Origin: Escherichia coli
GTDB lineage: Bacteria; Pseudomonadota; Gammaproteobacteria; Enterobacterales; Enterobacteriaceae
Assembly (NCBI RefSeq): GCF_003334315.1
Contig: NZ_QOWR01000139.1
DNA: 269 bases
Strand: one strand, 5' to 3'
The position numbers and the translations under genes are program-made. Below the pieces are notes generated by a model. That model searched no databases and had not been told where the DNA came from. It saw nothing but the letters and a program-made list of their open reading frames with translations. Below are positions 76-269 of this stretch, in pieces (position 1 is the stretch's first letter; each line of letters begins with the position of its first letter).

Positions 76-115
76 AAGGAGAAGAAACAAACTTATTAAG
101 CTAGAATAGCCACGG

Positions 116-269
116 GTGCTTGAGACTGTTTGTCTCAGGTATTCACCGAAAGGCAGACAGAGAAAAGCCCCACCTGACTATAAATCAAAGTTTGTACTGA
201 CCCCAAAAAGTTGGACAGTTAAACACGAGGCATATAGGTCTGATTCCGATATTCAATTGGAGTCAGACC
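116..269 (+). CDS. Speculative ORF fragment (hypothetical protein), GTG start, runs off the right edge
   Basis: This is the only extended open frame in the flank: + frame 2 is open from 110 to 269 after the TAG at 107-109. The first possible start is GTG at 116-118, with no convincing Shine-Dalgarno upstream. The translation (VLETVCLRYSPKGRQRKAPPDYKSKFVLTPKSWTVKHEAYRSDSDIQLESD…) matches nothing I recognise. An open frame of about 51 codons is weak evidence on its own. Confidence 0.12.
   Translation, partial: MLETVCLRYSPKGRQRKAPPDYKSKFVLTPKSWTVKHEAYRSDSDIQLESD
121..137. repeat. Perfect inverted repeat / hairpin (6-bp stem TGAGAC/GTCTCA, 5-nt loop TGTTT); function unassigned
   Basis: Seen directly: 121-126 TGAGAC pairs with 132-137 GTCTCA. 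As RNA the stem could extend with G-U wobbles and C-G/U-A pairs out to about 116-142. No U-tract follows on either strand, so it is not called a terminator. Confidence 0.5.
237..269. repeat. 33-bp near-palindrome (13-bp arms, 11/13 complementary, 7-bp spacer TATTCAA), truncated by the window edge; function unassigned
   Basis: Seen directly: 237-249 is GGTCTGATTCCGA and the reverse complement of 257-269 is GGTCTGACTCCAA. The outer 7 bp are perfect (GGTCTGA/TCAGACC), and the two mismatches would both be G-U wobbles in RNA. The right arm ends exactly at the window boundary, so the true extent is unknown. Confidence 0.5.

Follow-up and report, generated by a model that had tools for sequence, protein, structure and literature searches.

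Features of the window

The window, by which we mean the whole 269-nucleotide stretch of Escherichia coli DNA that was analysed, joins three unrelated pieces: one end of IS1, the promoter and leader region of hokA, and one end of IS150 (Table 1). Positions 1-75 contain both the IS1 terminal inverted repeat GGTGATGCTGCCAACTTACTGAT and an insA start near the left end, with the element running precisely to its terminal ...GCATCACC. Matches to this IS1 sequence occur in thousands of records. The promoter-like site upstream of insA is presumably the promoter of IS1 itself. IS150, a member of the IS3 family, is recognized by its terminal inverted repeat (TGTACTG...), its length of 1,443 bp and a transposase with a programmed frameshift, and window 193-269 is identical to the end of the K-12 copy. 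In E. coli K-12, the corresponding element occupies positions 3119-4561 (1,443 bp) of the comparison stretch L001, where the annotation gives an IS3-like IS150 transposase.

Table 1. Features located in the window (window coordinates)
Feature	Position	Strand	Basis or remark
IS1 left end (IRL)	1..75	-	Identical to the annotated IS1A end in stretch L002
insA GTG start	20->18	-	First 6 codons VASVSI
IS1 promoter-like site	68->41	-	CTGCCA-16-TATGAT, upstream of the insA GTG
Predicted hokA promoter region	76..113	+	-10 TAGAAT 102-107; weak -35 GAGAAG 79-84; position and conservation
hokA mRNA leader, first 79 nt	114..192	+	Rfam RF01794; cut off by IS150
Hairpin I	114-171	+	Contains the 5' "tac" sequence GGGUGCUUGAG
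Second small hairpin region	172-191	+	After hairpin I
Putative sokA antisense 3' remnant (approximate)	155..191	-	Hairpin 3' arm and U-rich tail; homology to R1 Sok and fold
IS150 right end (IRR)	193..269		Starts TGTACTGACCCC / TGTACTGACC; 100% identical to K-12
IS150 transposase (OrfAB/InsK C-terminus), last 16 codons and stop	219..269	-	GLTPIEYRNQTYMPRV, then stop

The initial annotation, made from the letters alone, had described positions 76-269 as a single flank of about 42% GC with an excess of A over T. A recount agrees on composition (A69 C39 G43 T43; GC 42.3%; AT skew +0.23), but the flank is not one entity, since 76-192 is chromosomal intergenic DNA and 193-269 belongs to IS150. The low GC content relative to the host is also real: E. 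coli genomes average ~51% GC, and the neighbouring glyQS genes reach 55.8%. The host is thus not close to 42%, the value that the initial annotation had named as refuting its reading. Low values are found throughout the AT-rich interval between glyS and cspE, with 34.9% in the spacer between glyS and IS150 and 35.3% in the hokA coding sequence; IS150 has 44.1%. The nature of the flank accounts for its low GC content, its excess of A and its lack of ATG: it consists of a promoter, an IS end and a leader that is not translated and ends ahead of the first start codon of the locus.

As had been noticed by eye, ATG does not occur on the plus strand anywhere in the 269 nucleotides. Mononucleotide composition predicts 4.1 occurrences and dinucleotide shuffles 3.8 (0.75, 1.97 and 1.33 for the three pieces), and the probability of finding none is 0.016 under a mononucleotide Poisson model, 0.005 in dinucleotide shuffles and 0.04 for the flank alone. 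However, this trinucleotide was picked post hoc. Thirty-seven trinucleotides have an expectation at least as high as that of ATG, and at least one of these is missing in 20% of shuffles; CGC, CGT, GCG and TCG are further trinucleotides that are missing from the window. The absence of ATG is therefore not significant once multiple testing is controlled, and we dropped it as a signal. Because the window joins three unrelated pieces, this absence has no single cause.

All three plus-strand frames had been said to close between 97 and 109, and their first stops indeed lie at 97 (frame 1), 102 (frame 3) and 107 (frame 2). The minus-strand frames had been described as broken or lacking starts. This is accurate inside the window, where stops are present in all three, but one of them is a genuine coding sequence that runs off the window edge: the frame that stays free of stops between 269 and 222 and terminates at 221-219 encodes the IS150 transposase C-terminus. 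Its translation is the same in the window and in K-12, and the annotated K-12 transposase coding sequence ends at L001 3145, which corresponds to window position 219. Three TTG-initiated ORFs of 23 to 26 amino acids were rejected as chance occurrences, as each coincides in part with the structured leader or the IS150 end and lacks support. A scan for tRNA and tmRNA gave no match in the window, and scans of the window for consensus promoters and terminators returned the IS1 site as the sole promoter-like match.

The predicted hokA promoter and the hokA leader

An Rfam search of the flank, which the initial annotation had proposed as a check, matched RF01794 at 114-253 (70.1 bits, E = 6.6e-16; gathering score 59). 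The posterior probability is high only to ~191, and the truly homologous part comprises model positions 1 to ~83 (window 114 to ~191). The 70-bit score slightly overstates the real match, because the alignment from ~192 to 253 is forced onto non-homologous IS150 sequence. In the intact allele of strain HH97 (L004 439-590, plus strand), the full model aligns with 119.3 bits and ends at the annotated hokA ATG, and the Klebsiella ortholog (L008 619-769, plus strand) scores 110.5 bits. Since the model ends on the hokA ATG in the intact allele, it represents the sense-strand hok mRNA leader, in spite of the family's name, "sok". RF01794 matches thus mark the toxin leader from the mRNA +1 to the hok AUG in the sense direction, and should not be annotated as an antitoxin at that position. 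The RefSeq annotation of the K-12 and HH97 stretches has no RNA feature at this leader. The earlier suggestion that the plus strand of the flank is largely non-coding and represents a UTR or small RNA was therefore apt, as the flank contains the hokA 5' leader and, opposite to it, a putative sokA remnant.

Window position G114 is the first base of the RF01794 hok-leader model. The hexamer TAGAAT occupies -12 to -7 relative to G114, such that its last base lies 7 nucleotides before it. In the Klebsiella ortholog, the sequence upstream of the -10 is unrelated, including the A-rich segment 76-101, while conservation extends to GCTAGAAT and to almost all positions from +1 onward; GC content across 76-113 is 34%. 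On the grounds of homology, position, spacing and conservation, this region is predicted to be the hokA promoter, with its +1 at G114, for which the calculated K-12 coordinate is ~3,722,154 of U00096.3, minus strand. Strict consensus promoter scans called neither the hokA nor the sokA promoter; the former was missed because its -35 is poor.

Hairpin I has a predicted folding energy of -26.7 kcal/mol (z = -3.9), and none of 200 shuffled sequences was as stable. Comparison with Klebsiella reveals a one-sided change that preserves pairing at one position of the hairpin and a loss of pairing at another, which are too few substitutions for covariation. The hokA leader shares a 5' GG(G/C)(U)GCUUGAG start with hok/sok (parB) of plasmid R1, the type member of RF01794. 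The two loci also share an architecture consisting of a long first hairpin, a second hairpin, a target hairpin with the mok start, and 5'-3' pairing. They differ in that hokA is a chromosomal, core locus and R1 hok/sok is plasmid-borne, and the window allele is additionally truncated.

Positions 75-269 of the window are 100% identical to K-12 MG1655. There, the sequence shares its strand with glyS, whose stop is 136 bp upstream, and is located between that gene and IS150. [quoted passage not shown] The K-12 hokA::IS150 allele (Pedersen & Gerdes 1999, as cited in PMC11551753, PMC2654758 and PMC7232551) agrees with the window in its glyS-side flank, the leader/IS150 junction and the loss of 38 bp described below, but does not have the IS1 left end that the window carries at about -38.

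The position downstream of glyS and in the same orientation might instead suggest that the flank is the ordinary 3' UTR or terminator region of this core gene. This is extremely improbable. The intrinsic terminator of glyS, a stem followed by a T-run, is located at L001 2884-2903 in K-12, ~100 bp upstream of window position 76, and the flank matches a 5' leader model that ends at the hokA ATG in intact alleles. Moreover, IS1 separates the flank from upstream DNA in the strain from which the window is derived.

The initial annotation favoured a different origin, namely horizontally acquired accessory DNA (a plasmid, island or prophage) encoding a non-canonical small RNA or UTR. The UTR or small-RNA part of this proposal is correct, and its wider claim has points in its favour: the flank is 42% GC compared with 55.8% in glyQS, positions 193-269 are indeed a mobile element, and the hok/sok family, initially discovered on plasmid R1, behaves as a selfish module (PMC2654758), a term that applies loosely to the chromosomal locus as well. 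The accessory reading nevertheless fails for 76-192. This segment was found at >=95% identity in 5,417 of 5,426 complete E. coli genomes (99.8%), where it is single-copy and always chromosomal, never on a plasmid, and the glyS-hokA arrangement is also conserved in Klebsiella. We therefore regard an accessory origin of the flank as unlikely.

Apparent plasmid matches do not alter this assessment. In a search for close plasmid relatives of the leader, the top matches were to IS150 or to megabase-sized "plasmid" records that are really chromosomes, and the idea that such relatives exist was given up. The single plausible match in the plasmid collection, K. pneumoniae record CP052389.1 (pC17KP0052-1; L008 1-919), is a 243-kb linear "plasmid" that carries glyS-hokA in chromosomal synteny, and the match is therefore to chromosomal DNA. 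Several other records among the plasmid-search matches are 1 to 5 Mb in length. Such plasmid-labelled records are likely to be mislabelled chromosomal sequence. The Klebsiella stretch also contains a match to the enterobacterial sRNA family STnc370 just downstream of glyS (67 bits, L008 452-521, minus strand); the E. coli stretch scanned (L004 300-900) had no equivalent match.

Disruption of the hokA/sokA locus by IS150

Intact hokA/sokA alleles are present in HH97 and CFT073, and in E. coli C according to the literature. Their promoter, +1 and leader positions 1-78 are identical or nearly identical to those of the window and belong to the same Rfam family. The intact alleles then continue with the sokT/mokA hairpin, the hokA SD, the 50-codon hokA gene directly after the leader and a 3' element, whereas the window passes into IS150 at +79. 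By alignment, leader positions +1 to +78/79 are kept. HH97 has flanks that are 100% identical to those of K-12, without IS150.

Pairing between the 5' and 3' ends of hok mRNAs is known as tac/fbi. In the intact allele L004, the leader 5' end GGGUGCUUGAG pairs with ...UCUCAUUGCACCC, which is located ~45 nucleotides past the hokA stop. The predicted duplex has an energy of -21.5 kcal/mol compared with -13.2 +/- 2.4 for shuffled sequences, of which 0.2% were as good, and the same pairing appears in the full-length MFE fold of this allele. The 3' partner lies outside the window and, in K-12, beyond IS150.

An upstream ATG at leader position +90 of the intact allele is in frame with hokA and opens a 70-codon mokA reading frame; in contrast, mok and hok of R1 are out of frame. 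This ATG belongs to the 38 bp of the intact locus (L004 517-554; GAGGCCCCTCTATGCATAGACACCATAAGGTTAGCCTC) that K-12-type alleles lack, and which form a GAGGC...GCCUC hairpin that holds it. Judging by the position of the R1 sok promoter, the missing 38 bp probably also hold the sokA -10 (TAACCT, minus strand) and start site. Both the mok start and the putative sok promoter/target hairpin are consequently missing from the window allele.

On the minus strand of the intact allele (L004 540->480), a strong hairpin is followed by a U-rich tail (-25 kcal/mol, z = -4.1). By homology to R1 Sok RNA, the minus strand of the window at 155-191 appears to be a 3' remnant of sokA, with approximate boundaries, that lacks the promoter -10, the start and the 5' part. 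The window does not include the hok toxin ORF; in K-12, whose allele is identical, IS150 displaces hokA by 1.4 kb. The window is thus a fragment of a member locus and holds no complete hok/sok module.

The exact leader/IS150 junction of the window (192/193) was found in 1,644 of the 5,426 complete E. coli genomes, and an uninterrupted hokA locus in 2,826. For the purposes of annotation, the K-12-type allele is accordingly characterized by its 38-bp loss, the lack of a target duplication and a frequency of ~30% compared with ~52% for the intact form. The K-12 flanks of the element, which meet it at L001 3118/3119 and 4561/4562 (...AAAGTT / IS150 / TACTCG...), exhibit no direct repeat of the kind expected from a 3-4 bp target-site duplication. 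Together with the 38 bp that are missing from the target, this suggests either an adjacent deletion, whether it accompanied the insertion or came later, or a secondary event. The assignment of the element to IS150 is unaffected by this. We also observed that E. coli EC2 (L006 ~500-520) has a 46-bp deletion at the same spot in hokA without IS150 (...AAAGTT/GGAAATC...), and that the left edge of this deletion coincides with the position of the IS150 junction. It could reflect imprecise loss of IS150, or an independent deletion of an intact allele through GT microhomology.

Work on the hok family by the Gerdes laboratory has established that the 5' leader pairs with the mRNA 3' end, which renders the full-length mRNA inert. 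Trimming of the 3' end allows the leader to refold and mok and hok to be translated, and binding of antisense Sok RNA leads to mRNA cleavage and blocks their translation. In the allele represented by the window, 1.4 kb of IS150 lies between the promoter and 5' leader on one side and the mokA/hokA reading frame on the other, and loss of the 38 bp removes the mokA ATG along with the putative sokA -10 and start. Neither toxin nor antitoxin would then be produced from its normal signals, which argues that the flank is a non-functional relic. The adjoining IS1 probably adds no further effect.

Alternatively, transcription of the orphan hokA promoter and 79-nucleotide leader might persist and have acquired a new role, either as a stable small RNA or as antisense read-through that dampens IS150. 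Among the 1,644 junction-sharing genomes, both the -10 TAGAAT and hairpin I remain intact with 100% conservation, hairpin I is very stable, and any transcript that starts at G114 would extend into the 3' end of the transposase gene (219-269) in the antisense direction. This conservation is explained by recent common descent, however, as the flanks are also 100% identical in these genomes. In addition, the terminator scan of the window gave no terminator after the leader, and inactivity has been reported for chromosomal hok loci (PMC2654758; bioRxiv 10.1101/2025.08.07.668861). Co-option is in our estimation quite improbable. There is a slighter chance still that a candidate RNA reading from the orphan promoter into IS150 in the antisense direction acts as an accidental, host-derived regulator of IS150 or as a stable decoy, and that IS1 at -38 retunes it.

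Reading the flank as a decayed toxin-antitoxin locus agrees with published descriptions. The dead hokA module of K-12 has already been reported (Pedersen & Gerdes 1999, as cited in PMC11551753), an IS150 insertion also disrupts sokA of MG1655 (PMC11551753), and IS elements, rearrangements or point mutations account for the inactivation of the hok loci of K-12 (PMC2654758, PMC7232551). Chromosomal hok loci did not mediate post-segregational killing (bioRxiv 10.1101/2025.08.07.668861). A similar allele, sokE::IS150 of the hokE locus, is widespread in natural isolates and likewise has IS150 in the antisense/leader region of a chromosomal hok/sok paralog (PMC11551753), although this is a different locus at another chromosomal site. 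The leader in the window is accordingly part of a decayed remnant that is already known.

IS1 junctions in the glyS-hokA spacer

The significance of the window extends little beyond its correct annotation, in which the odd flank becomes a known IS150-disrupted hokA/sokA relic with a strain-specific IS1 junction. This junction is the sole new item. IS1 abuts the hokA promoter region at about -38 (junction 75/76), and the junction was found in 0 of the 5,426 complete E. coli genomes, where only non-contiguous, two-piece matches occur; there was also no match in GTDB representative genomes. It could have arisen by simple insertion, by rearrangement or through an assembly join. The other end of IS1, which together with the end in the window would bracket the 8-9 bp target-site duplication typical of this element, lies outside the 269 nucleotides. 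If the junction reflects a simple insertion, that other end should be followed by ...TTATATC, preceded by a 9-bp repeat of AAGGAGAAG or a similar sequence. We also considered whether IS1 supplies part of a hybrid promoter, and rejected this because its outward-facing TTGGCA (62-67) has no usable -10 at a spacing of 16 to 18 bp and is 34 bp from TAGAAT.

The window has a 117-bp unique core between 75 and 77 nucleotides of multi-copy IS sequence, which is the shape of a unitig in a short-read de Bruijn graph and suggests that the window is a tiny contig of a draft assembly. This shape, and the lack of the exact junction in the genomes searched, would be compatible with a chimeric sequence or assembly artefact whose IS1/flank junction exists in no cell. 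However, the IS1 sequence extends to its terminal base and no further, as a true transposition event would leave it, and independent IS1 junctions are present in the same spacer in two other strains. The remainder of the window, 75-269, is certainly genuine, given its identity to K-12. The probability that the junction is artefactual is in our view very small, and the occurrence of such junctions in other strains makes a strain-specific IS1 junction in the window plausible.

The two further strains with IS1 in the AT-rich glyS-hokA spacer carry it 35 and 90 bp further upstream. Three different IS1 junctions are consequently seen within ~90 bp of spacer: window 75/76, L002 3076/3077 and L007 ~1536. 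Besides the window, the IS1-bearing strains are ETEC4088 and CP131_Sichuan, in both of which IS1 is bordered on its far side by a yiaL gene that is truncated, at a different point in each. These differences suggest independent IS1-mediated rearrangements, which are probably inversions because glyQS is essential. The three junctions together suggest that the spacer has been struck by IS1 independently at least three times.
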